NCBI GenBank assembly: GCA_000025185.1
Contig: CP001848.1
Span: 4,200,001 to 4,232,000 of the forward strand
From: Pirellula staleyi DSM 6068
GTDB taxonomy: Bacteria; Planctomycetota; Planctomycetia; Pirellulales; Pirellulaceae
Direction of reading: 5' to 3'
Length of the DNA stretch: 32,000 nucleotides
The position numbers were made by a program, and so were the translations under genes. The notes beneath the pieces are model-generated. The model worked only from the letters and a program-made list of their open reading frames with translations, did not search any database and had not been told where the DNA came from. This document shows positions 2,779 through 18,812 of the stretch, piece after piece; within the stretch, counting starts at the first letter, position 1; every line of letters begins with the position of its first letter.

Positions 2779-4281
2779 TTGTTTCCCTCGTACCGATCCC
2801 CGGCACTTTGCCCCAATCCTTGCGACGGAGTTTTTCCTGTGGACGAGCGGAGCGATTATCGCCAGCCAATCCCCTCGAAAATCCCTCCAGCAACAGGGAT
2901 AGGTAGCGGGCTTCCCATCCACCAAACAACGGGGTGGAATACGCAAGAGCCGATCACGACTCACGAACCGGGGGAGAGCAGCCGACCTTCGGGGGCTCAC
3001 GATTTTGCCTCGATTCGTCAGGCTGTTCGAGCGGCCAGTAGTTCGCCCGATGAATCGAGTGACGCGGCTGCGGCCAATCTAGTCGGGGTGAGTGCCTCCC
3101 CTTGGGACGAAACCTCAGCCGACCGGGAAGTGCTACGCGTGAAACTCGCCTGGGCCAAGCTGATGTGGCTGATGGCCTTTCTGATGGTGCTTCTCGCGGT
3201 TAGCTATCTTGTGCCGTTTATCGCCGAGAATACCCAGTATGCCATCACGCGCGGCAAGCAGCGTGCGGAATACGATTTCGCCAAGCAGCATCTCGCGGGC
3301 GATCCTCTCGCGCAGATGTCGCAGGCATATCAGATGGTTTCGCAGCGCGTGAGTCCCAGTGTGGTGCATATCAACACGATTGCGTCGGGCAGCGACGTCT
3401 ATTTGCCGACTTTGTCGCTGCAAAGTCCCAGCCGCAGCCGGATGCCAGCGGAAGGGCAGGGCTCGGGATTTATTGTTGATGCTGGCGGCTATGTGGTGAC
3501 AAATTATCACGTCATTCGCGACGCCCAGCGTATTCAAGTGGCACTGAGCGATGGCCGTCGGGTCGAAGGTCAAATTATTGGCTACGATAAAGAGACCGAT
3601 CTGGCGGTGTTGAAGATCAAGGCCGACAAGCTGATTGCCGCTCAGTGGGCTAATAGCGACGATGTGAACGTTGGGTCGCTTGTTTGGGCGGTTGGTAGCC
3701 CCTTCGGGCTGGAGCGGAGCATCACCTCGGGGATTTTGAGCGCGAAGCATCGGGCTGGTCTCGCGGGAACTCCTTATCAAGACTTTCTGCAATCCGATGC
3801 TGCGGTGAATCCTGGGAACAGCGGAGGTCCGCTGGTCGACATTCAAGGCCGCGTTCTCGGCGTGAACACGGCGATTGTGGGGGACGCCTATCAGGGGATC
3901 AGCTTTGCGGTTCCGAGCAACGTGGCACGCGAGGTGTTTGAGCGTCTGCGCGACGATGGCCTCGTGCGCCGAGGCTGGCTTGGTGTCGCGCTCGATGTTC
4001 CTGATCGCGAAGAGGCTATCAAAGCGGGGTCTACTGAAGGAAATGGAGCGCTCGTGAGCCAAGTGGTTGATGGCGATGGGATGCAGTCTCCTGCCGCCAA
4101 AGCGGGGATCGAGTCGGGTGATATTGTGATTCGCTGGAACGATACTCCGGTCGATGCCCCCGCGACCCTCAGCAATTTGGTCGCTCGCACCCCTGTCGGT
4201 TCGACCGCTTCAGTGGTGATTGCTCGCGGAGGCCAACAATCCACCGTCGAAGTGGTAGTCGGGCTCCGGCCTTCCCCTTAA
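2779..4281 (+). CDS. HtrA/DegP-family (S1C) serine protease with N-terminal membrane anchor and C-terminal PDZ domain
   Basis: Catalytic-triad motifs appear in the canonical order: TNYHVI (His), DLAVLKI (Asp), GNSGGPLVD (Ser). A TM helix (WLMAFLMVLLAVSYLVPFI) precedes the protease domain, and a PDZ-like C-terminal region follows (GDIVIRWNDTPV...). The start is uncertain: TTG 2779 is preceded by purine-rich GAGAGGGGA, and there is no in-frame ATG before the TM helix. Confidence 0.88.
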   Translation: MFPSYRSPALCPNPCDGVFPVDERSDYRQPIPSKIPPATGIGSGLPIHQTTGWNTQEPITTHEPGESSRPSGAHDFASIRQAVRAASSSPDESSDAAAANLVGVSASPWDETSADREVLRVKLAWAKLMWLMAFLMVLLAVSYLVPFIAENTQYAITRGKQRAEYDFAKQHLAGDPLAQMSQAYQMVSQRVSPSVVHINTIASGSDVYLPTLSLQSPSRSRMPAEGQGSGFIVDAGGYVVTNYHVIRDAQRIQVALSDGRRVEGQIIGYDKETDLAVLKIKADKLIAAQWANSDDVNVGSLVWAVGSPFGLERSITSGILSAKHRAGLAGTPYQDFLQSDAAVNPGNSGGPLVDIQGRVLGVNTAIVGDAYQGISFAVPSNVAREVFERLRDDGLVRRGWLGVALDVPDREEAIKAGSTEGNGALVSQVVDGDGMQSPAAKAGIESGDIVIRWNDTPVDAPATLSNLVARTPVGSTASVVIARGGQQSTVEVVVGLRPSP

Positions 4282-9302: not shown

Positions 9303-12300
9303 CTATTTCGGCTTCGCTGCGCGGAGCGAGATCAAGGTGTTCTCGACGCTCGACAGCTGCTGCTCGAGTTGTGCCAGCGCATCGCGCTCGGCTTGCACCA
9401 CATTGGCTGGTGCTCGGCTGACAAATCCCTCGCTCGCGAGCTTCGACTGCTTGGCCTTGATGAGCCCTGCCAGCTTAACAAGTTGCTGCTCGTTTTTCGC
9501 GATTTCGGCCCCGATATCGATAAAATCCTTTAGGTCGACGAACAGCTGCATCGAGGCAATGGCAGTCCCCACATGCGTGGCTGGCGGTTCCGCTGCGGGG
9601 CCAATGTGGGTGGCAGTGGCGTTGGCCATGGAGCGGAAATAGGGAGCCATCGGTTCGAGCAGCGTGGCGACATCGGCATCTGCTTTGAGCGCGAATTCGA
9701 TCGGGTTTTTCATGCCGATATTCTGACGCGAACGAATTTCACGCAGCGCATCGAGCACCGCGCGGAAAATCGAAAAACGACGTTCCATATCGGGGTTTTG
9801 TAGCGCCAAATCGGCGCGTGGCCACTCGGCCATTATTAGCCAATCGGCTGCAGGTGCAGGTTCACGCAGCCCACGCACCGGTGCCATCTTGGCGAGTTGT
9901 TGCCAGATCTCTTCGGTCAAAAATGGCATCATCGGATGGAGCAAACGGAGCATCGTATCGAGCGTATGCGCCAGCACGCGCTGGGCAGTGGGCCGCGCCT
10001 CGGGATCTTGCAATCGCGCCTTCGTGATCTCGACATAGAGGCTGCAGAATTCATCCCATGCGAAGTCGTAAATGCTCTTCGCCGCATCGGCATAACGATA
10101 GGTCTGCAGTGCTTCGGTCACCTCACGCGTCACCGTAGTGAGCCGCGACAAGAGCCAGCGATCTTCCACCGCAAGTTCCTCGGGCAATACACTTCCAGGT
10201 GTGTATTCCTTCAGATTGATAAGCGCAAATCGCGCGGCGTTCCAGAGCTTGTTACTAAAGTTGCGCGCCACTTCAAAGCGTTCGCTCACTACGGCAGCTC
10301 GAGGCAGTGCTTGATCTTCTTCTTTACGCGCCCACTGCGTCGAGAATTCTTTGCTGCACTTTGTGCAAGCGACGCGGGGAAGTTCGCGATTCTTCTTCGT
10401 CTGATCGACGAGCGCTTCGCAGTGCGGGCATTCAAACTGCACCGGCATCCGCACATCTTGCGTTTCGGTCGTCAGGCAAGTGAGGCCGAAGCGGAGCGCA
10501 TCGGCGCCGAACTTGGCCACAATGTCGTTGGGGTCGACACCGTTCCCCTTGCTCTTGCTCATTGTCTCGCCATAGCCATCGAGAATCTTCGGATGGATGA
10601 AGACCTCGCGGAATGGCACTTCCCCCATGTTGTTGAGTCCCGTAAGAACCATGCGCGCCACCCACAACGTAATAATGTCGCGGCTGGTGATCAGCACACT
10701 CGTGGGGTAGAAGAACGCAAGGTCGCTCGTTTTTTCAGGCCATCCGAGCGTGCTATGCGGCCAGAGCGCCGACGAGAACCAGGTGTCGAGCACATCTTCT
10801 TCACGCACAAATCCAAGCGACTCGATTTTCTTCTCGAGCGACTCATCTTCCTTCGCGAGGCACACATGCAAGGTGCCAAAAATCTCTCCATTTCCCTCGG
10901 CATACTCGGGGTTGTGCTCGAGTTGTATCGAAACCGCATCCTTCTGCTCAGCAAACTCTCCCTGGAGTTTTGCAAGCCAAAGCGTCGCCTCTTGCTCCGT
11001 AGCAAATCGATGGGACCAGATCGGAATCTGATGCCCCCACCAGAGTTGGCGACTCACCGGCCAGTCTCGTTTTTCGCCCAGCCAGTCGAGGTAGCTTTTA
11101 GCGTAGCGAGGAGGAACGATTTTCACGCGGCTGTCGGTCACGGCATCCATGGCGGACTGCGCGAGCTGATCCATCCGCACAAACCACTGATCGGCCAGCA
11201 GCGGTTCGATGGGGGTCTTGCTACGATCGCTATGCGGCAGCTCGATTTCTCGATCTTCGACATCACCGAGCAGCCCGAGCGCATCGAGATCAGCGACCAC
11301 TCGCTCGCGCGCTTGCTTGATCGTGAGCCCTTGATACTTCGCTCCAGCATTGGCATTGAGCTTGCCATCGACGGTCAGGATGTTGATCATCGGCAGCTTT
11401 TGACGGCGGCCGACGTCGTAGTCGTTCGGGTCGTGAGCGGGAGTGATTTTGACGCACCCGGAGCCCATTTCAGGCTTGGCCCACACATCGCCGACGAGCG
11501 GAATTTCGCGCTCGGCTAGCGGCAGCATTAGTGTGCGACCATCGCGCGCCATGGCGGCGAGTTGCTCGAGGAGCGGAAGCATCGACGTCCGGCGCTCGGC
11601 GATATTTTTCAGCTGCTCTTCCAGAGCTTCTTTGTCCTTCGCAGCAGCTTTTTCGAGACGTGCGCGAAGCTCGGCCTCTGCTGCATCGAGCGCTTTGGCT
11701 GGTTCGGGATGCACAGCCACCGCCGTATCACCCAGCATCGTTTCCGGGCGCGTGGTGGCCACTGTCACATGCGTAGGCTCGCCCGGCTGAGGGTTAATGA
11801 CCGCATATCGCAGCTGCCAAAAACTTCCCTTCACCGTTTCTTGAGAGACTTCGTCATCGCTCACGGCCGTCTGGAGAAACGTGTCCCAGTTCACCAGTTT
11901 CTTGCCGCGGTAGATCAACTCTTTTTGGAACAGGTCGAAGAAGGTGCGCCGGACCGCGGTCGCGCAGACCTCGTCGAGCGTGAAGCGAGTCCGCTGCCAG
12001 TCGCAGCTGCACCCCATCTGTTTCAACTGGCCGAGAATGCGTTTCTCGTACTCCGCTTTCCAGTTCCAAATCCGCTCGACCAACTTTTCGCGACCCAGGT
12101 CGTGACGCGTTTTTCCCTCTTCTTCGCGCAGACGACGTTCCACCACTGCCTGCGTGGCGATGCCAGCATGGTCGGTCCCGGGAACCCACAGCGTGACATA
12201 ACCTTGCATCCGCTTCATTCGAATTTGAATGTCTTGCAGCGTGTTGTTGAGGGCATGCCCCAGATGCAAAGCGCCAGTGACATTCGGTGGCGGAATCACA

Positions 12301-12434
12301 ATGGCAAACGGTTCTTTACCGATTTGCGGTTCCGCGTGGAAATAGCCGCGCGTTTCCCACTCGGCATAGATGCGAGGCTGTGTTTCGGCAAAGTCGAAAC
12401 GATTGGCGAGCGACTCGGGAGAAAACTCAGTCAT
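9303..12434 (-). CDS. valS: valine--tRNA ligase
   Basis: 1043 aa. It carries the class I HIGH motif (PPNVTGALHLGH), the KMSKS loop (TMSKSKGN), editing-domain motifs (TTRPETMLGDTAVAVHP, KITPAHDPNDYDVG) and a C-terminal coiled coil typical of ValRS. Confidence 0.97.
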   Translation of the reverse strand: MTEFSPESLANRFDFAETQPRIYAEWETRGYFHAEPQIGKEPFAIVIPPPNVTGALHLGHALNNTLQDIQIRMKRMQGYVTLWVPGTDHAGIATQAVVERRLREEEGKTRHDLGREKLVERIWNWKAEYEKRILGQLKQMGCSCDWQRTRFTLDEVCATAVRRTFFDLFQKELIYRGKKLVNWDTFLQTAVSDDEVSQETVKGSFWQLRYAVINPQPGEPTHVTVATTRPETMLGDTAVAVHPEPAKALDAAEAELRARLEKAAAKDKEALEEQLKNIAERRTSMLPLLEQLAAMARDGRTLMLPLAEREIPLVGDVWAKPEMGSGCVKITPAHDPNDYDVGRRQKLPMINILTVDGKLNANAGAKYQGLTIKQARERVVADLDALGLLGDVEDREIELPHSDRSKTPIEPLLADQWFVRMDQLAQSAMDAVTDSRVKIVPPRYAKSYLDWLGEKRDWPVSRQLWWGHQIPIWSHRFATEQEATLWLAKLQGEFAEQKDAVSIQLEHNPEYAEGNGEIFGTLHVCLAKEDESLEKKIESLGFVREEDVLDTWFSSALWPHSTLGWPEKTSDLAFFYPTSVLITSRDIITLWVARMVLTGLNNMGEVPFREVFIHPKILDGYGETMSKSKGNGVDPNDIVAKFGADALRFGLTCLTTETQDVRMPVQFECPHCEALVDQTKKNRELPRVACTKCSKEFSTQWARKEEDQALPRAAVVSERFEVARNFSNKLWNAARFALINLKEYTPGSVLPEELAVEDRWLLSRLTTVTREVTEALQTYRYADAAKSIYDFAWDEFCSLYVEITKARLQDPEARPTAQRVLAHTLDTMLRLLHPMMPFLTEEIWQQLAKMAPVRGLREPAPAADWLIMAEWPRADLALQNPDMERRFSIFRAVLDALREIRSRQNIGMKNPIEFALKADADVATLLEPMAPYFRSMANATATHIGPAAEPPATHVGTAIASMQLFVDLKDFIDIGAEIAKNEQQLVKLAGLIKAKQSKLASEGFVSRAPANVVQAERDALAQLEQQLSSVENTLISLRAAKPK

Positions 12435-12552
12435 GCGTGCGTGCCTTGTTCTTCAATCCACTCGCCGATGCGAGTGCAACGTCCGTGATGAAATTGCGTG
12501 CGTGTAGTGTGGGTCGAATCGGTATAGGAAACTGTTGGTGAGCGTGGGCGTT

Positions 12553-14154
12553 CTAAGCCACACCATCTTTACAAAGTTTGTACTCGATGGCATCGACCAG
12601 CGCGAGCCAACTTGCCTCGATGATGTTTTCGCTCACACCAACGGTTCCCCAAACATCGTGCTGATCGGCCGACTCGATGATCACGCGGATGCGAGCAGCG
12701 GTCCCTTGCTGTCCGTTTACCACGCGCACCTTGTAGTCGATCAATTGCACATCGCGAAGCGTCGGGTACTCGACTGCGAGTGCTTTACGAAGTGCGGCAT
12801 CCAGAGCGTTCACCGGGCCATCTCCTTCGGCCACTTCGTAACGCTCTTGCCCCCGAATGTTCAGTTTTACGGAAGCTTCCGTGACCGGTTCCCCTTGGTT
12901 CGCGGCGGAAACCCCGACGTGGTATTTAAGGCGGTCGAAGTGCGAATTGAAGTTGCCAGTGGCACGACGAACAAGCAGATCGAACGAAGCCCCTGCTGCT
13001 TCAAATTGCCAGCCACTCGCTTCGAGGTCGACTACCTGCTTGAGAATGCGGTCCATCAACTCGCGATCATCGGAAACGTTATGTTTGGCGGTAAGCGCAG
13101 CGATGTTCGAGCGGCCCGACAGTTCGCTCACCAAGATGCGCCGCTCGTTACCGACTAGTTCTGGATCGAGATGTTCGTACGACGAAGTGGCGCGAGTAAT
13201 CGCATGAACGTGCATGCCACCTTTATGTGCAAATGCGCTTTGGCCGACGAAAGGCTGCCCCGATCGCATATTCAGGTTGGCAGTTTCATAGACAAATCGC
13301 GACAACTCGGTGAGATGCGTGAGACCTCGGCCGCCGAGGATCGAGTATCCCTTTTTCTTGAGTCCCAGATTGGCCATCACCGAGATAAGATCGGCGTTGC
13401 CGCAGCGCTCACCTACGCCATTGATCGTCCCTTGCACTTGGGCAGCGCCGGCATCCACCGCAGAGAGGGAATTGGCCACCGCCAGTTCACAGTCGTTGTG
13501 GCAATGGATTCCCACTTGCACTCCGAGCGGCTCGAGTGCCTCGCGAGCCCAGCGCGTCCGCTCGGCAATCTGCTCGGGCATAGTGCCACCATTGGTATCG
13601 CACAGAATCACCATCTTCGCGCCCGCTTTGGCGGCTGTCGTGATGGTTTTTAGTGCGTAGTCGCTGTTGGCAGCGCTGCCGTCGAAAAAATGCTCGGCGT
13701 CGTAGAAGACTTCGCGCCCCTGCGACACTAGGTACGCAATCGAGTCGTGAATCATCGCCAGGTTTTCTTCGAGCGTCACGCGCAATACTTCGGTGACATG
13801 AAAGTCGGATGTCTTGCCGACAATCGTGCAGATTGGGGCATGCGATTCGACGAGCGCTTTCATACCTGGATCGTCGGCAGCGATCACCCCTTTGCGGCGC
13901 GTCATGCCGAAGGCACATACCTTCGCGGTTTTGAATTTCATCGCACGCACGCGCTGAAAGAACTCGGCATCTTTCGGGTTCGAAAGGGGGTAGCCACCTT
14001 CAATAAAATCGATCCCGATCTCGTCCAATCGCGCGGCAATTTGAAGTTTGTCCTCGAGTGAAAGGCTCACGCCTTCTCCCTGGGTTCCATCGCGAAGCGT
14101 GGTGTCGTAGATCTGGATCGTACGCATGTCTTGGGTCTCTACTTTCGCTCGCAT
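12553..14154 (-). CDS. cimA: (R)-citramalate synthase (CimA-type member of the 2-isopropylmalate synthase family)
   Basis: The N-terminal DRE-TIM signature is IQIYDTTLRDGTQGEGVSLSLEDKLQIA...IDFIEGGYPLSNPKD. The HCHND metal site and a C-terminal LeuA-dimer-like regulatory domain are also present. The pattern resembles the CimA subfamily more than LeuA, but an HMM is needed to separate them. Start ATG 14154 has GAGGA 5 nt upstream; ATG 14127 is an alternative. The track start at 14232 would run through a terminator hairpin. Confidence 0.85.
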   Translation of the reverse strand: MRAKVETQDMRTIQIYDTTLRDGTQGEGVSLSLEDKLQIAARLDEIGIDFIEGGYPLSNPKDAEFFQRVRAMKFKTAKVCAFGMTRRKGVIAADDPGMKALVESHAPICTIVGKTSDFHVTEVLRVTLEENLAMIHDSIAYLVSQGREVFYDAEHFFDGSAANSDYALKTITTAAKAGAKMVILCDTNGGTMPEQIAERTRWAREALEPLGVQVGIHCHNDCELAVANSLSAVDAGAAQVQGTINGVGERCGNADLISVMANLGLKKKGYSILGGRGLTHLTELSRFVYETANLNMRSGQPFVGQSAFAHKGGMHVHAITRATSSYEHLDPELVGNERRILVSELSGRSNIAALTAKHNVSDDRELMDRILKQVVDLEASGWQFEAAGASFDLLVRRATGNFNSHFDRLKYHVGVSAANQGEPVTEASVKLNIRGQERYEVAEGDGPVNALDAALRKALAVEYPTLRDVQLIDYKVRVVNGQQGTAARIRVIIESADQHDVWGTVGVSENIIEASWLALVDAIEYKLCKDGVA

Positions 14155-14228
14155 CAGTTCCTCGGCCGGAATTGAATCAAGCAACATTCGAAGCGGAAAA
14201 TCGAAAACGGGGAAGTGCCAGTCAGTAA

Positions 14229-14264
14229 ACAAAAAAAGCCCTGAAACCGCGGGGGCTTCAGGGC
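14229..14264 (-). terminator. intrinsic terminator (candidate attenuator) between mini-ORF and cimA
   Basis: On the minus strand the sequence reads GCCCTGAAG-CCCCCGCGG-TTTCAGGGC followed by TTTTTTTGTTT. That gives 8 perfect bp, extendable to about 11 bp with a 5-nt loop, then 7 consecutive U. It sits 36 nt after the mini-ORF stop and 75 nt before the cimA ATG. Confidence 0.7.
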
Positions 14265-14299
14265 AGGAAATTTTTCGGTGTGCGTACCGTTTTCCTCCA

Positions 14300-14428
14300 T
14301 CAGCCCGGGCTGTGCCCGCTGATAATCAGCACCACAATAATCACTCCAATCGCTACACCTCGCAGAGTGCGCAGTGGAACCATCATCCGGCGGATGGCGG
14401 TCGAAAGTGAATGGATGTGGTGATGCAT
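14300..14428 (-). CDS. 42-codon mini-ORF, candidate branched-chain amino acid leader peptide
   Basis: My own translation of the minus strand gives MHHHIHSLSTAIRRMMVPLRTLRGVAIGVIIVVLIISGHSPG*. Residues 25-36 are 10/12 Ile/Val/Leu (5 Ile, 4 Val, 1 Leu). The ORF is below the length threshold of the ORF track. No Shine-Dalgarno was seen, so translation is unproven. Confidence 0.4.
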   Translation of the reverse strand: MHHHIHSLSTAIRRMMVPLRTLRGVAIGVIIVVLIISGHSPG

Positions 14429-14491
14429 AGGAAATCGGCCTATTTCGGCTGTCACTTGCCCCAGCGGGAAGTGGCAGCACGAAGATTCTCA

Positions 14492-14520
14492 AAACTACGC
14501 TCTGGCCTGCGCTATGTCAA
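14492..14520 (-). promoter_or_regulatory. candidate sigma70-type promoter for the mini-ORF/cimA transcript (TTGACA-N17-TAGTTT)
   Basis: On the minus strand there is a perfect TTGACA (14520..14515), a 17-nt spacer, then TAGTTT (14497..14492). The predicted 5' end lies about 55 nt upstream of the mini-ORF ATG. This is a sequence match only. Confidence 0.3.
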
Positions 14521-14803: not shown

Positions 14804-15862
14804 ATGGAGCCTGTCGCCTACGATTTCCTCCGCAAGTTGCTCGATACACCCAGCCCTAGTGGTTATGAGCGTCCGATTCAGGATGTGGTTCGGAGTTATG
14901 TCCGCGACTTTGCCGACAGTGTCTCGACCGACCTGCACGGAAATGTGATTGCCGCGAAGAATCCGGGGGCGGCTCGCCGCGTGATGTTCGCCGGTCACTG
15001 CGACCAAATCGGCATGCTGGTGACCCATATCAACGAAAACGGATTTATCTATGCGCAAACCATTGGAGGCTGGGATGCTCAGCAGCTGATTGGCCAGCGG
15101 ATGGTGATTTGGACCGCCGAGGGGCCCGTTCCGGCCGTCATCAGCCGCAAGCCGATCCACTTACTCTCCGACGAGGAACGCAAAAGTGTCGTGAAACTCG
15201 ACGATTTGTGGCTCGATATTGGGGCACGAAACAAGGCAGAAGTGGCTGGAATCATTAAAATCGGCGATCCGGTGACGCTGGAGCTGAAGTACACCGAGAT
15301 GCGAAACAAACTCGCCAGCAGCCCGGCGATGGACAACAAAGTGGGTCTGTGGGTCTGTATTGAAGCTCTGCGGCGCGCCAGTCAGCAGAACTTGCAGGTG
15401 GGTGTTTTCGCGGTCTCGACCGTGTGCGAAGAAATTGGCTTGCGAGGGGCTCAGACGTCGGCTTTCGGAGTCGATCCGCACATTGGTATCGCGGTCGACG
15501 TGACCCATGCGACCGATTGCCCCACGATCGACAAGCGTCAGCAGGGTGATATTGCCCTGGGGAGTGGTCCGGTCATTTTCCGTGGCCCGAACATGAATCC
15601 TGTCGTCACGGCGAAACTGCTGAGCCTCGCCCAGGAGAAGATGATTCCCCACCAAATTTCGGCCAGCGGCCGAGCAGTGCCAAACGATGCCAACGCCCTG
15701 CAAGTCAATCGCGCTGGCGTAGCGACCGGACTTGTGAGCATTCCCAATCGCTACATGCATTCGGCTGTTGAAATGGTTTCGCTCGAGGATATTGACCAGG
15801 CGGCTGACCTACTGGCAGCGTTTGTAATTTCCCTCGAAGGAACTGAGGACTTTACACCCTAG
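14804..15862 (+). CDS. M42 family metallopeptidase (FrvX/CelM/glutamyl aminopeptidase type)
   Basis: 352 aa. The N-terminus (FLRKLLDTPSPSGYE), the motifs GHCDQIG, AMDNKVG and EEIGLRGA, and the C-terminal RYMHSAVE all follow the M42 family pattern as I recall it. Confidence 0.88.
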   Translation: MEPVAYDFLRKLLDTPSPSGYERPIQDVVRSYVRDFADSVSTDLHGNVIAAKNPGAARRVMFAGHCDQIGMLVTHINENGFIYAQTIGGWDAQQLIGQRMVIWTAEGPVPAVISRKPIHLLSDEERKSVVKLDDLWLDIGARNKAEVAGIIKIGDPVTLELKYTEMRNKLASSPAMDNKVGLWVCIEALRRASQQNLQVGVFAVSTVCEEIGLRGAQTSAFGVDPHIGIAVDVTHATDCPTIDKRQQGDIALGSGPVIFRGPNMNPVVTAKLLSLAQEKMIPHQISASGRAVPNDANALQVNRAGVATGLVSIPNRYMHSAVEMVSLEDIDQAADLLAAFVISLEGTEDFTP

Positions 15863-15963
15863 ATGGGTTATGATCACCGCCGTTGGTCTTTGTCAAAGAT
15901 CGACAGTTGCTAGACGAAGACTTTTCCGTATCGCTGCACCTACCTCATCTGGAGTTCTTGACG

Positions 15964-17385
15964 ATGGGCGTCATTTCGAATGATTCGTGGTTCTCCAACA
16001 TCATTTCAGCGGTACTGGGCGTATTTGTCGCGCCCGTCGTTGGATTGATTGCGGTCGTCGTCTTGTTCTGGAACGAAGGCAACTACCTTTACACAGCGCT
16101 CAGTTTGGATGCTGCTGAAAAGGTGGTGCAAACGGTCGACGGCGCCGCCAAACTCCCTGCTAACGAAGGGAAGCTGGTGCATGTCTCGGGAAAAATGTCT
16201 AGCGACATGCCGCTTGTGGATGAACAGTTTGGCGTGGGTGGGGATGTCGCACGTATGCGGCGGATTGTGGAAATGTATCAATGGGTCGAGCACGAGCACA
16301 CACGCACCAAAAAGAAGCTGGGTGGTGGTACGCGGCGAGTCACCGAGTACGAATATAAAATGGAATGGGTCGAGGGAGTCGAGGACTCACGGAATTTCTA
16401 CGACGCCACGCATGTGAACCCCACCTCAATCCCATTTACTTCGGACGTCAAGCAGGCCAGCAGTGTGCGGCTGGGTGGCTTTGTGATCGGCGATGAACAA
16501 CTCGATAAACTCAGCTATAAGCCCCTGGCTCTGACGAGCCAGACGTTCACCGGTGTTCCCCCCGGGGTTACACCCAAGCCAGTCCCCACGGGATCTGAGC
16601 TCTATGTTCCGGTGGAATGGACATCGTTTGGTCGTGAATCGGTGCAGCCCCCGAAAGCCTCGAAAGAGGCTCCACAGGAAGAAGAAATGCCTGTGAACTG
16701 TGGCGCTGATCCCGCTGCTGAATCGGCTCCCGAAGTCACCCCTGAAGCAGCTCCCACTGAGCCAGCAACAGAGGCCGCCCCACAACCCGAAGCTGCGCCC
16801 GTTGATATGCCGAGCGAAGAGCCTCAGGACTTGTCGCCGTCGCGTTTGAACGAACCGCAAGTTGGTGATGTGCGCATTCGCTTCGAAGCGATCCCACTCG
16901 ACGATGTGACCGTGGTCGCCAAGCAAGAGGGAGAAGCACTCGTCGATTTCATCCCAGAGCTTCGTAACGCCAGGCCGATCATGCTGGTCGACGAAGGGGT
17001 CCACACGACGAAGGTGATGTTCGACAATGCTCGCACTCAAAACACCATGATGCTCTGGATTACACGTGTGATCGGCGGCATTTTGGTTTTCGCTGGCACA
17101 TTCATGGTGCTTCGTCCTCTCAAGGTGTTTGCTGACTTCATTCCGATGATCGGCAGCATTGTCGGCTTCGGCATTTTTGTCGTGGCACTGTTCGTCTCGG
17201 GAGGCTTGACGGTGATGATCATCGGCGTTGCTTGGGTCTATTATCGCCCACTCATCGGCTGTCTCATCTTGCTGCTTGGAGCCCTGATATTCGGCGGTCT
17301 GATCTACCTGATTCGCGCGAGCAGTTCCAAAAACAAGCCTATCATGGCGACTGTGGGGCCCGATCAGCCGATCATCCTGAACTAA
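15964..17385 (+). CDS. TMEM43/LUMA family (Pfam DUF1625-type) membrane protein, paralogue 1
   Basis: The full length is collinear with the eukaryotic TMEM43 pattern as I recall it. The shared elements are an N-terminal TM ending in LFWNEG, then NEGKLVHVSG, VEMYQW, YEYKMEW, NP.SIPF and QVGDVRIRF, three C-terminal TM helices, and WVYYRP. ATG 15964 is preceded by GGAG; the track start at 15883 adds 27 non-conserved codons. It carries a Pro/Glu/Ala-rich insertion of about 60 aa that is absent from paralogue 2. Confidence 0.8.
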   Translation: MGVISNDSWFSNIISAVLGVFVAPVVGLIAVVVLFWNEGNYLYTALSLDAAEKVVQTVDGAAKLPANEGKLVHVSGKMSSDMPLVDEQFGVGGDVARMRRIVEMYQWVEHEHTRTKKKLGGGTRRVTEYEYKMEWVEGVEDSRNFYDATHVNPTSIPFTSDVKQASSVRLGGFVIGDEQLDKLSYKPLALTSQTFTGVPPGVTPKPVPTGSELYVPVEWTSFGRESVQPPKASKEAPQEEEMPVNCGADPAAESAPEVTPEAAPTEPATEAAPQPEAAPVDMPSEEPQDLSPSRLNEPQVGDVRIRFEAIPLDDVTVVAKQEGEALVDFIPELRNARPIMLVDEGVHTTKVMFDNARTQNTMMLWITRVIGGILVFAGTFMVLRPLKVFADFIPMIGSIVGFGIFVVALFVSGGLTVMIIGVAWVYYRPLIGCLILLLGALIFGGLIYLIRASSSKNKPIMATVGPDQPIILN

Positions 17386-17458: not shown

Positions 17459-17498
17459 CGTGAGTGATTCTCCAGTGGGAGTCACTCACGATTTTTTA
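17459..17498 (+). terminator. intrinsic terminator between the two TMEM43-family genes
   Basis: CGTGAGTGA(TT)CTCC-AGTG-GGAGTCACTCACG forms a 13-bp stem with a 2-nt bulge and a 4-nt loop, followed by ATTTTTTA (T-run 17492..17497). It lies 74 nt after the paralogue-1 stop and 64 nt before the paralogue-2 ATG. Confidence 0.65.
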
Positions 17499-17561
17499 TG
17501 GCCGGACCCTCGCTCAAAAAGTGAAAGGCACTACAGAGCGCGGGGCGTGGAGCGAGCTTGG

Positions 17562-18812
17562 ATGTCGACTGTTGTCACCAGCCAAACGAGTTGGTTTTCG
17601 AGCATCGTCAAAGCGCTGCTGGGTTTCGTTATCGCTCCCTTGGTGGGCCTTTGTGCGGCATTTTTGCTGTTCTGGAACGAAGGGGACTATCTCTACATCG
17701 CTTACAGCCTCGATGAAGGGGAGCAAGTGGTGAAATCGATCGATCCCCATCAGATCGATCCAGCACTCGAGGGAGAGTTGGTGCATGTTTCAGGTCATCT
17801 GAAAGTTCCCCATCAGGTCGAAGACCCCCAGTTTGGTTTGAAAGTAACGGCGATTCGGCTCTATCGCATTGCCGAGATGTATCAGTGGAAGGAAAGCAAG
17901 TCGGAGCGGCGCGTAGATAAGGTCGGGGGTGGAACCCAGATGATCACCGAGTATCACTACGCCGTAGGCTGGCACGAGGATCTGATTCGCTCGAACTCAT
18001 TTCAAACACCCAGGGGACACGAGAATCCCGAGTCGATTCCCTTTACCTCGCAAGTGTTCGATGCCAAAGAAGTACTGCTAGGGGCGTTTCGACTCGATCC
18101 GTCGCAGCTGAAGCAACTGGATACCCGGACCGACCTTTCGCTCGATTGGCTCAAGCCTGACGAGATCCCACAAGAGATTTCGGCGCGGCCACTTCTGCTG
18201 CGAGATCAGCTTTACTTTCCGCGGGAGATTTTGCGCGGCAAGGGTGCGCCGGAAGAGCCTGTGAAGTTAACAGCCGAACGTCCCCAGCGCCCTGAGGTGG
18301 GTGATGTGCGGATTCGCTATCAGGTGGTTCCGCCGCAAGAGGTGACGATCGTCGCTAAGCAGTCGGCTGGGACATTTGTGGAGTATGCCACCAAGGTGAA
18401 AGCACGCCGTGGCATCAATTTGGTCGCTGCCGGAAAGAAAAGCTCCCAGGAAATGTTCGCCGATGCGCGGTTTGCGAATGTCGCTGGACTTTGGATGATG
18501 CGCAGCTTTGGCGGATTTCTGATGTTTGTGGCTGTCGGCATGTTTTTGCAGCCGATTCGCGCACTCGCCAGTGTGATTCCGCTGCTCGGACAGATCGTCG
18601 GCTGGGGGCTCGCTTTAGTCGCCTTTTTTGTCTCGGGTGGACTTACGGTCATGGTGGTCGGCCTTGCGTGGCTCTACTATCGCCCGATCGTCGGCCTCTT
18701 GATCTTGCTGCTAGGGGCGATCGTAATTGTGGGGGTGGTGATGCTGCTGCAAATGCGTCGCTCGCTTCAGGAGTCCCCCGAGATGCCAGCACCGCTGATA
18801 GGTGACCGCTAG
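17562..18812 (+). CDS. TMEM43/LUMA family (Pfam DUF1625-type) membrane protein, paralogue 2
   Basis: It has the same motif series as paralogue 1: LFWNEG, EGELVHVSG, AEMYQW, NPESIPFTS, EVGDVRIRY, FVSGGLTVM and WLYYRP. By eye it is roughly half identical to paralogue 1. ATG 17562 was chosen because the track start at 17460 lies inside the terminator hairpin. Confidence 0.8.
   Translation: MSTVVTSQTSWFSSIVKALLGFVIAPLVGLCAAFLLFWNEGDYLYIAYSLDEGEQVVKSIDPHQIDPALEGELVHVSGHLKVPHQVEDPQFGLKVTAIRLYRIAEMYQWKESKSERRVDKVGGGTQMITEYHYAVGWHEDLIRSNSFQTPRGHENPESIPFTSQVFDAKEVLLGAFRLDPSQLKQLDTRTDLSLDWLKPDEIPQEISARPLLLRDQLYFPREILRGKGAPEEPVKLTAERPQRPEVGDVRIRYQVVPPQEVTIVAKQSAGTFVEYATKVKARRGINLVAAGKKSSQEMFADARFANVAGLWMMRSFGGFLMFVAVGMFLQPIRALASVIPLLGQIVGWGLALVAFFVSGGLTVMVVGLAWLYYRPIVGLLILLLGAIVIVGVVMLLQMRRSLQESPEMPAPLIGDR

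Follow-up and report, generated by a model that had tools for sequence, protein, structure and literature searches.

Upstream of the citramalate synthase gene cimA of Pirellula staleyi DSM 6068 lie a promoter, a short open reading frame (ORF) rich in branched-chain codons and a terminator hairpin, and the question this locus raises is whether they form a switch which couples transcription of cimA to the supply of an amino acid. CimA catalyses the first committed step of the citramalate route to isoleucine; to our knowledge, gene regulation in the Planctomycetota is very poorly charted. We analysed a stretch of 32,000 nucleotides (nt) of contig CP001848.1 (positions 4,200,001 to 4,232,000, hereafter the window), for which a preliminary description made from the sequence alone had proposed leader-peptide attenuation. 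All coordinates are window positions, and all leader elements are on the minus strand (Table 1). Our analysis makes it highly probable that the leader is a ribosome-mediated (leader-peptide) transcription attenuator sensing charged tRNA-Ile and, less so, tRNA-Val, and that it controls cimA and probably the next gene, valS. The support is wholly computational and consists of the elements themselves, an architecture found phylum-wide, covariation between segments 2 and 3 of the switch, and a spacing compatible with a ribosome footprint.

The isoleucine-rich leader and the terminator upstream of cimA

The 42-codon ORF of the preliminary description (MHHHIHSLSTAIRRMMVPLRTLRGVAIGVIIVVLIISGHSPG) was recovered at its given position, with the residues V-A-I-G-V-I-I-V-V-L-I-I (VAIGVIIVVLII) at codons 25-36. 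The GC-rich terminator is also as described, with stem arms GCCCUGAAGCC / GGUUUCAGGGC followed by seven U at 14237..14231, and so is the distance of 75 nt from 14229 to the ATG of cimA at 14154, which is preceded by a GAGGAA Shine-Dalgarno-like site; the TIGR00977 match identifies the product as citramalate synthase. Because the upstream neighbour, an M42 peptidase (aminopeptidase) gene at 14804..15862, lies on the strand opposite to cimA, the terminator cannot serve a co-oriented gene upstream. The whole 271-nt leader folds with a z-score of -4.4. As to chance, an ORF with at least 4 Ile per 8 codons ending 15-50 nt before a terminator occurs in about 0.15% of dinucleotide-shuffled upstream regions.

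Two sets of loci were collected. The first consists of 80 Planctomycetota loci from genomes and metagenome-assembled genomes (MAGs), obtained by a CimA search (54-77% identical), plus the window; the second, an independent replication set, consists of 72 metagenome loci, from a CimA search that gave 80 (53-78% identical). The nearest CimA relatives of the window in these collections are only 77-78% identical. Cultured strains that carry the element include Gemmata sp. IIL30 (L057), Novipirellula rosea JCM 17759 (L013) and strain ZRK32 (L067, complete genome CP066225.1). Family counts refer to the 153 planctomycete cimA loci with enough upstream sequence. We scored as terminator-bearing those with a strong intrinsic terminator at most 270 nt upstream of cimA, and as Ile-rich leaders the ORFs with at least 3 Ile per 8 codons that ended 15-50 nt before the terminator stem; dinucleotide shuffles and the reverse-complement strand served as controls for the Ile-run count.

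A terminator was found at 125 of the 153 loci, mostly of the type (A)CCCUGAGGCC...GGCCUCAGGG(U)UUUU, and that of the window is homologous to this CCCUGA type. Within the genome set, 37 of 67 terminator-bearing loci had an Ile-rich leader, compared with 1.26 in shuffles and 1 on the reverse complement, and the replication set gave 43 of 57 against 1.6 expected. In total, 79 of the 153 loci combine a terminator with an Ile-rich short ORF, a combination seen at about 1-2 loci per shuffle set. The spacer from the leader stop codon to the terminator stem is also constrained (median 30 nt, interquartile range 28-34). The arrangement in which promoter, Ile-rich mini-ORF, spacer of about 30 nt, terminator and cimA follow one another is thus conserved in two independent Planctomycetota sets, which backs the attenuator reading of the preliminary description. 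It is also largely confined to cimA: when all window and locus DNA was scanned on two strands for at least 4 codons of one residue per 8 followed by a terminator, 32 of the 36 matches were the cimA leader. One of the four off-target matches was inspected, a Thr-run ORF with a terminator at L071:5307; considered as a second attenuator, it was rejected as an artefact, an out-of-frame reading at an ordinary gene's terminator.

We then looked at the composition of the leaders. In both sets the peptides, which range from 16 to about 45 residues, show no amino-acid conservation beyond the Ile run (examples from relatives are MFFATSIIAISIIIGTGKA, MTTANASIIAIAIIITYPM, MSNFSRFIDQLRRRSASRPVIGIIIIREVRP, MNTTKVAPIIGISIIIRHGAR and MTIATGIIIIEEPHCR), and relatives have Ile/Val runs of 3-6 residues, often only 3-5, with charged flanks, as in IIIIREVRP and IIIGEAGA. 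The last 16 leader residues of the genome set comprise 20.5% Ile, 13.9% Val and 2.9% Leu. In the replication set Ile codons exceeded shuffles about 27-fold and Val codons about 9-fold, compared with 1.5-4-fold for the six other residues tested, part of which arises because an ORF is present at all. From this composition and this enrichment, the codons predicted to be sensed are those for Ile, with Val second. The preliminary description had also named Leu, which is not clearly enriched (about 2.8-fold, within the range of the other residues). Sensing of Ile codons fits the Ile-specific enzyme CimA. The choice of Ile codon is itself unusual: in 46 genome-set loci including the window the leaders favour ATT (138 ATT, 83 ATC; 60% ATT), whereas the adjacent cimA ORFs favour ATC (224 ATT, 854 ATC; 78% ATC), an odds ratio of 6.3 (p = 8e-33). 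This bias could reflect slower wobble decoding or the need for an unstructured AU-rich tract.

The promoter had been called near-consensus, which is correct for the -35 hexamer TTGACA; the -10 hexamer TAGTTT shares only 3 of 6 positions with TATAAT and escaped a generic promoter scan. Together, with their N17 spacer, they conform to a family pattern, TTGACN-N16-18-TANNNT, which precedes 67 of 94 related leaders (0.6 would be expected by shuffling) and usually puts the transcription start 20-60 nt ahead of the leader start codon. For the window the start is predicted near 14484, about 7 nt past the -10 box. Between promoter and leader ORF sits the hairpin already noted in the preliminary description, with a core of 12 bp between 14478 and 14448 that can be extended to 14483..14444 (z = -3.8); it buries an alternative GTG start at 14455, is not present in the nearest relatives and is specific to the lineage of the window. 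At seven other loci (L034, L036, L104, L130, L143, L150 and L128) the start predicted 7 nt past the -10 box falls on, or at most 2 nt from, the leader start codon, and there the leader peptide may be translated from a leaderless mRNA.

Predicted pairing of the stop-codon region with the terminator

An attenuator of this kind needs a structure that competes with the terminator, and here the preliminary description could not establish a convincing antiterminator. Judged by complementarity and covariation, such an antiterminator is present, as a helix between the stop-codon region and the terminator's 5' arm. When the leaders are lined up at their stops, the sequence around the stop, typically GGCC-UAG-GGC, resembles that of the terminator's 3' arm and complements the 5' arm (GCCCUGAGGCC). 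The two strands co-vary, with terminator and stop region reading, respectively, ACCCCGAAG and CUUCGGGGU in L057, GCCCUAC and GUAGGGC in L067, GCCCUGCCC and GGGUAGGGC in L073 and L079, AGCUCUGGA and UCCAGGGCU in L053, and CGGUCG and CGACCG in L080. Since bulges and register shifts of this helix move alignment columns by one, we chose an alignment-free permutation test, in which the best duplex was computed for each stop region with the terminator arm of every locus and matched pairs were compared with mismatched ones. In the genome set the matched duplexes averaged -19.8 kcal/mol and the mismatched ones -14.8 kcal/mol (p<1e-4, 0 of 10,000 permutations), with -12.7 kcal/mol for shuffled segments and -10.9 kcal/mol for an upstream-window control. 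The replication set gave the same picture (-18.8 versus -14.4 kcal/mol, p<1e-4).

TAG is usually a rare stop codon. Among the leaders of 79 loci, the stops are 33 TAG, 27 TGA and 19 TAA (for example L024:2865 and L061:2841). A preference for TAG is expected if UAGGGC is selected for pairing, UAG-GGC being the likely core of the antiterminator with GCCCUG. In leaders that end in TAA, the extra A is bulged in the antiterminator helix.

We folded the window transcript to successive 3' ends as co-transcriptional snapshots, using energy models that leave out kinetics, polymerase pausing and ribosome-polymerase coupling. With the 5' arm and the loop of the terminator present and the 3' arm still missing, the minimum-energy fold is the 2:3 antiterminator, which is mutually exclusive with the terminator. 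Its pairs join GGGCU 14306..14302, including the U of UGA, to AGCCC 14257..14253, GG 14298..14297 to CC 14263..14262, and AGGAAA 14296..14291 to UUUCCU 14270..14265. The AGGAAA/TTTCCT pairing picked out in the preliminary description is therefore one part of the predicted antiterminator. The antiterminator hairpin (14307..14252) has a folding energy of -20.0 kcal/mol (z = -3.25), and none of 200 shuffles was as stable. It is capped by a mini-hairpin, P2 (CGGU-UACGCA-ACCG), and a small spacer hairpin like P2 could be read, by eye only, in the alignment of many relatives. With the 3' arm included, folding yields the terminator (-19.3 kcal/mol) plus a 1:2 hairpin (14324..14298; UAUCAGCGGGC / GCCCGGGCUGAUG; -13.4 kcal/mol, z = -3.07) that sequesters segment 2. 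The mutually exclusive structures which the preliminary description had suggested looking for, the antiterminator versus the 1:2 hairpin with the terminator, thus appear according to the 3' end. Because this 1:2 protector joins the antiterminator and the terminator, the window is, in these models, equipped with all four classical segments.

Support for the protector across the family is weak. Across loci the 1:2 hairpin had a mean z of -0.39, with 13% of loci below -1.64, and on this signal we do not put forward a conserved segment 1:segment 2 protector as a family feature. Since the protector signal is weak, and since the antiterminator forms without a ribosome in most loci (see below), most family members resemble, in the models, switches of three segments that stay ON without translation, to which the window adds the protector.

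Table 1. Features of the cimA leader and of the genes it precedes, in window coordinates.
Feature	Position	Strand	Basis
-35 hexamer TTGACA	14515..14520	-	read directly; fits family promoter pattern
-10 hexamer TAGTTT, 17-nt spacer after -35	14492..14497	-	read directly; fits family promoter pattern
Hairpin of the 5' untranslated region, 16 bp with bulges	14444..14483	-	-21.2 kcal/mol, z = -3.83
Leader ORF, 42 codons + UGA	14300..14428	-	ORF list and translation; architecture kept in relatives
Regulatory codon run, codons 25-36 (5 Ile, 4 Val, 1 Leu)	14321..14356	-	codon count
Segment 1 (UAUCAGCGGGC), predicted protector; overlaps Ile codons 35-36, pairs with segment 2	14314..14324	-	folding
Segment 2 (GCCCGGGCUGAUGGAGGAAA), predicted antiterminator 5' strand; holds UGA 14302..14300	14291..14310	-	folding, stop-region covariation
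Apical mini-hairpin P2, caps the antiterminator	14276..14289	-	folding
Segment 3 (UUUCCUGCCCUGAAGCCC), predicted antiterminator 3' strand and terminator 5' arm	14253..14270	-	folding
Intrinsic terminator hairpin, 11-bp stem, 5-nt loop	14238..14264	-	-19.3 kcal/mol, z = -4.5
U-tract (U7 G U3), predicted 3' end of attenuated transcript of about 250 nt	14227..14237	-	read directly; terminator scan
cimA, citramalate synthase, 533 residues	12553..14154	-	TIGR00977, 670.6 bits (cutoff 450); alternative ATG 14127
valS, valine--tRNA ligase	9303..12434	-	starts 118 nt downstream of cimA

Ribosome position, the proposed switch and its alternatives

Is the position of a ribosome on the leader able to select between these structures? 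With a ribosome at the stop codon, segment 2 falls inside the footprint, and the last Ile codon begins a median of 15 nt (interquartile range 11-17) ahead of segment 2. By the established size of the ribosome footprint, about 15 nt roughly matches its 3' edge with the codon in the A site. In folds made before the 3' arm is available, a ribosome placed at Ile left the terminator's 5' arm paired with the stop region in 38 of 46 loci, and one placed on the stop did so in 3 of 46; with no ribosome, the antiterminator formed in 37 of 46. These masked folds test geometry only, and by that measure a ribosome at Ile would free the antiterminator strand and one at the stop would mask it.

We infer from these elements that the leader is translated, that ribosomes stall at its Ile codons and that termination actually takes place and responds to Ile. 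Transcription would start near 14484, and a ribosome would translate the leader ORF as RNA polymerase advances. With plentiful Ile it would reach the UGA at 14302..14300 and cover segment 2 with its footprint; segment 3 would then be free to pair with segment 4 (14248..14238), and the terminator and its U7 would release a transcript of about 250 nt, leaving cimA off. When charged tRNA-Ile is scarce, the ribosome would stall in the Ile/Val run and mask segment 1, segment 2 would be free to capture segment 3 on its emergence, before segment 4 is made, and, with no terminator formed, the polymerase would read into cimA and probably valS. An antiterminator strand built on the leader stop codon would therefore read out the position of the terminating ribosome directly.

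Several observations weigh against this reading. The antiterminator of the window comes in two parts and is less stable than is usual in the family; beyond P2, which coexists with the terminator, it contributes only about -13 kcal/mol, versus -19.3 kcal/mol for the terminator, and can thus win only kinetically. The duplex value of the window is unremarkable as well (-16.7 kcal/mol, against a shuffled mean of -12.7 with a standard deviation of 4.7). RNAalifold, a check suggested in the preliminary description, gave an empty consensus for 23 antiterminator regions aligned with MAFFT, because a bulge on either strand or none (UAG-GGC, UUAGGGC, UAA-GGGC) shifts the columns. The start codon of the window leader is uncertain, with in-frame alternatives at GTG 14455 (buried, as said, in the 5' hairpin) and at ATG 14386/14383; no clear Shine-Dalgarno sequence was seen for it, and between transcription start and stop codon the leader measures about 182 nt, unusually long beside the 75-130 nt or so of most relatives. 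At the level of the family, 28 of 153 loci have no detectable terminator and 46 of the 125 terminator-bearing loci lack an ORF that passes the strict Ile threshold. With its bipartite antiterminator, its long leader and a 5' hairpin not found in its nearest relatives, the window is a divergent member of the family.

Could any slowing of translation work the switch? If the leader were a general translation sensor, antibiotics, the stringent response or global starvation would each be enough to release the antiterminator, and the Ile run would merely be a hydrophobic, AU-rich unstructured tract. The predominance of three-segment leaders that fold into the antiterminator when untranslated is in line with this, and ATT-rich runs would likewise hold the region unstructured. 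We nevertheless judge it improbable: the enrichment over shuffles is codon-specific, with Ile and Val well above the other residues tested, the runs are in frame with start and stop and at a fixed distance from segment 2, and the regulated gene is the Ile-specific cimA. It is very improbable that promoter, mini-ORF and terminator constitute an independent small gene, for a hydrophobic or membrane peptide or a small RNA, with no control over cimA. The stretch of 13 hydrophobic residues in the window peptide speaks for such a gene, as does the terminator being the favoured fold at equilibrium, and trans-acting RNAs and peptides derived from attenuators are known, for example rnTrpL and peTrpL (PMC7298713). 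A small membrane protein, however, is recognised by a span of about 18-20 residues and by conservation at the protein level; the run of the window reaches only about 13 residues, which the preliminary description had already considered too short for a transmembrane helix, and those of relatives, often 3-5 residues with charged flanks, are shorter still. Beyond that run neither sequence nor length of the peptide is kept, and no protein family of Pfam or NCBIfam matches; what is conserved is RNA, in that the stop region covaries with the terminator arm, and the unit always lies directly upstream of cimA and in the same orientation.

A riboregulator that binds a ligand, a tRNA or a protein (a riboswitch, a T-box or a TRAP-like target), with the ORF incidental, is the least probable of the explanations we weighed. 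The terminator stem (CCCUGAGG) is unusually conserved for a terminator, and in other phyla ilv and leu genes are under T-box control (PMC2494555). Yet the need to pair with two partners accounts for the conservation of the stem, there is no sequence conservation outside promoter, stop region and terminator, and the conserved reading frame with its Ile codons would be left unexplained. Searches of Rfam point the same way: the leader had no match at E<=10, T-box (RF00230) included, a low-stringency search gave only chance-level matches to eukaryotic miRNAs and snoRNAs (E of about 1 or higher), and no family reached its gathering score in the whole window or in 15 related loci. No leader-peptide family was among the Pfam and NCBIfam matches at E<=10, the sole match, to a daptide family, being at chance level (E = 0.13).

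The cimA-valS unit, variant loci and comparison with known attenuators

Downstream of cimA, no terminator was detected in the 118-nt gap to valS (12435..12552). Among the genome loci, 49 of 80 have valS downstream of cimA and co-oriented with it, and in 41 of those 49 it lies within 700 nt (gaps of -9 to 669 nt, mostly below 250 nt); at most a weak terminator-like hairpin was seen, in 8 of the 41 gaps. This gene order suggests that cimA-valS is a conserved operon under the Ile/Val attenuator, and in the window valS is probably co-transcribed and co-regulated with cimA. If so, the Val codons of the leader would have a rationale.

Some loci depart from the common plan. In L012 (2900..2960) the promoter is followed almost directly by the terminator, without an Ile-rich ORF, and in Bythopirellula and relatives (L008, L009 and L011) a common conserved upstream hairpin (…GATGCTCAAGGGTAGCATAACC…) is present and a terminator is not; regulation of cimA may be different in the L012 and Bythopirellula-type loci. 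Leaders of the Gemmatales/Isosphaerales type (L049, L053, L055, L122, L127, L128, L132 and L134) have in common an internal peptide motif, AAQGVR, whose RNA, approximately GCNCAGGGNGUGCG, is a second CAGGG element with Ile/Val/Thr-rich runs on either side. The switch of this subfamily may be more complex, or may include a second antiterminator-like segment. Simple repeats occur between terminator and cimA in L024, as (GCAAATT)n at 2925..2990, and in L061, as inverted GGGCTAGGG/CCCTAGCCC arrays (2900..3000). Elsewhere in the window, two tandem paralogous ORFs on the plus strand, 15883..17385 and 17460..18812 (500 and 450 residues), have a similar N-terminal region (SWFSNIISAVLGVFVAPVVGL... and SWFSSIVKALLGFVIAPLVGL...) and hydrophobic C-termini, and look like a duplicated membrane-protein gene pair.

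How new is this leader? Full-text literature searches gave nothing relevant on leader-peptide attenuation with Planctomycetes or citramalate synthase, and neither these nor the Rfam searches returned an amino-acid attenuator for Planctomycetota, or for cimA in any organism. We consider it rather probable, with less assurance than for the attenuator itself, that the leaders form a class of Ile-sensing leader-peptide attenuators not described before and found across the phylum, in Planctomycetia, Phycisphaerae and MAGs labelled Brocadiia, governing cimA-valS, with an antiterminator on the leader stop (UAG-GGC with GCCCUG), mostly of three segments and ON when untranslated. The mechanism itself is textbook, and the advance is one of scope, not of kind. 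If the proposal is right, Planctomycetota would have their first defined amino-acid-responsive cis-regulatory RNA, and geneticists a candidate Ile-responsive switch, native and ready-made, for a phylum with few tools. The leader very probably raises isoleucine synthesis when isoleucine is short, and a conserved Ile-codon attenuator would provide independent regulatory evidence that in these bacteria isoleucine is made by the citramalate route under the control of tRNA-Ile charging. Classical attenuation, best known in Proteobacteria, Actinobacteria and Firmicutes, would be extended to another deep lineage, which bears on how often it has been invented. For annotation, the signature is TTGACN-N17-TANNNT, a short Ile-run ORF, UAGGGC, a spacer of about 30 nt and a CCCUGAGG terminator.

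Because valS directly follows cimA, a relevant comparison is pheM-pheST of E. coli, a leader-peptide attenuator of an aminoacyl-tRNA synthetase operon; there the codons are Phe and the synthetase is the first gene, whereas here they are Ile and the synthetase gene valS follows cimA in the putative operon. The same physiological logic is found in the T-box leaders of ilv, leu and aminoacyl-tRNA synthetase genes, which also sense tRNA charging through a terminator/antiterminator switch (PMC2494555), but they bind uncharged tRNA directly, without translation, and the window has no T-box signature. Outside Proteobacteria, leader-peptide transcription attenuators of operons for branched-chain amino acids (BCAA) are represented by Listeria Rli60 and Staphylococcus aureus ilv-leu (PMC5864092, PMC5794164); these are found in Firmicutes, act with CodY, are Leu-rich in S. 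aureus, and differ from the cimA leader in target operon and by their unrelated sequence. Comparative genomics has also yielded the ilvB-II (Corynebacterium), ilvB-OMG (several phyla) and ilvB (Leptospira) leaders, for which attenuation was proposed (PMC10272879). Like the cimA leader, these are conserved 5' leaders of BCAA genes, with an in-frame upstream ORF rich in BCAA/Thr codons (PMC10272879). The gene downstream is ilvB rather than cimA, and structure and taxa differ, which sets the cimA leader apart from the ilvB motifs; within Rfam (E<=10) it belongs to no family.

The preliminary description had compared the locus with the enterobacterial leaders of ilvGMEDA (ilvL), ilvBN (ivbL) and leu (leuL). 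The likeness is that of an analogue, with leader ORF, terminator and antiterminator in place, and not that of a homologue, given the lack of any Rfam, Pfam or NCBIfam match. Common to all, on the reading proposed here, are a run of branched-chain codons, a terminator before the first structural gene and a mutually exclusive antiterminator selected by the position of the ribosome; in the window, moreover, the predicted 1:2 protector shares nucleotides with the regulatory codons, in keeping with the classical four-segment model. The enterobacterial leaders are multivalent for Ile, Val and Leu, whereas the cimA leaders are essentially Ile with some Val, and most of them appear to have no conserved segment 1. 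Their target, cimA(-valS), belongs to a pathway that E. coli lacks, and the stop codon itself, typically as UAG-GGC, forms the core of their antiterminator strand.

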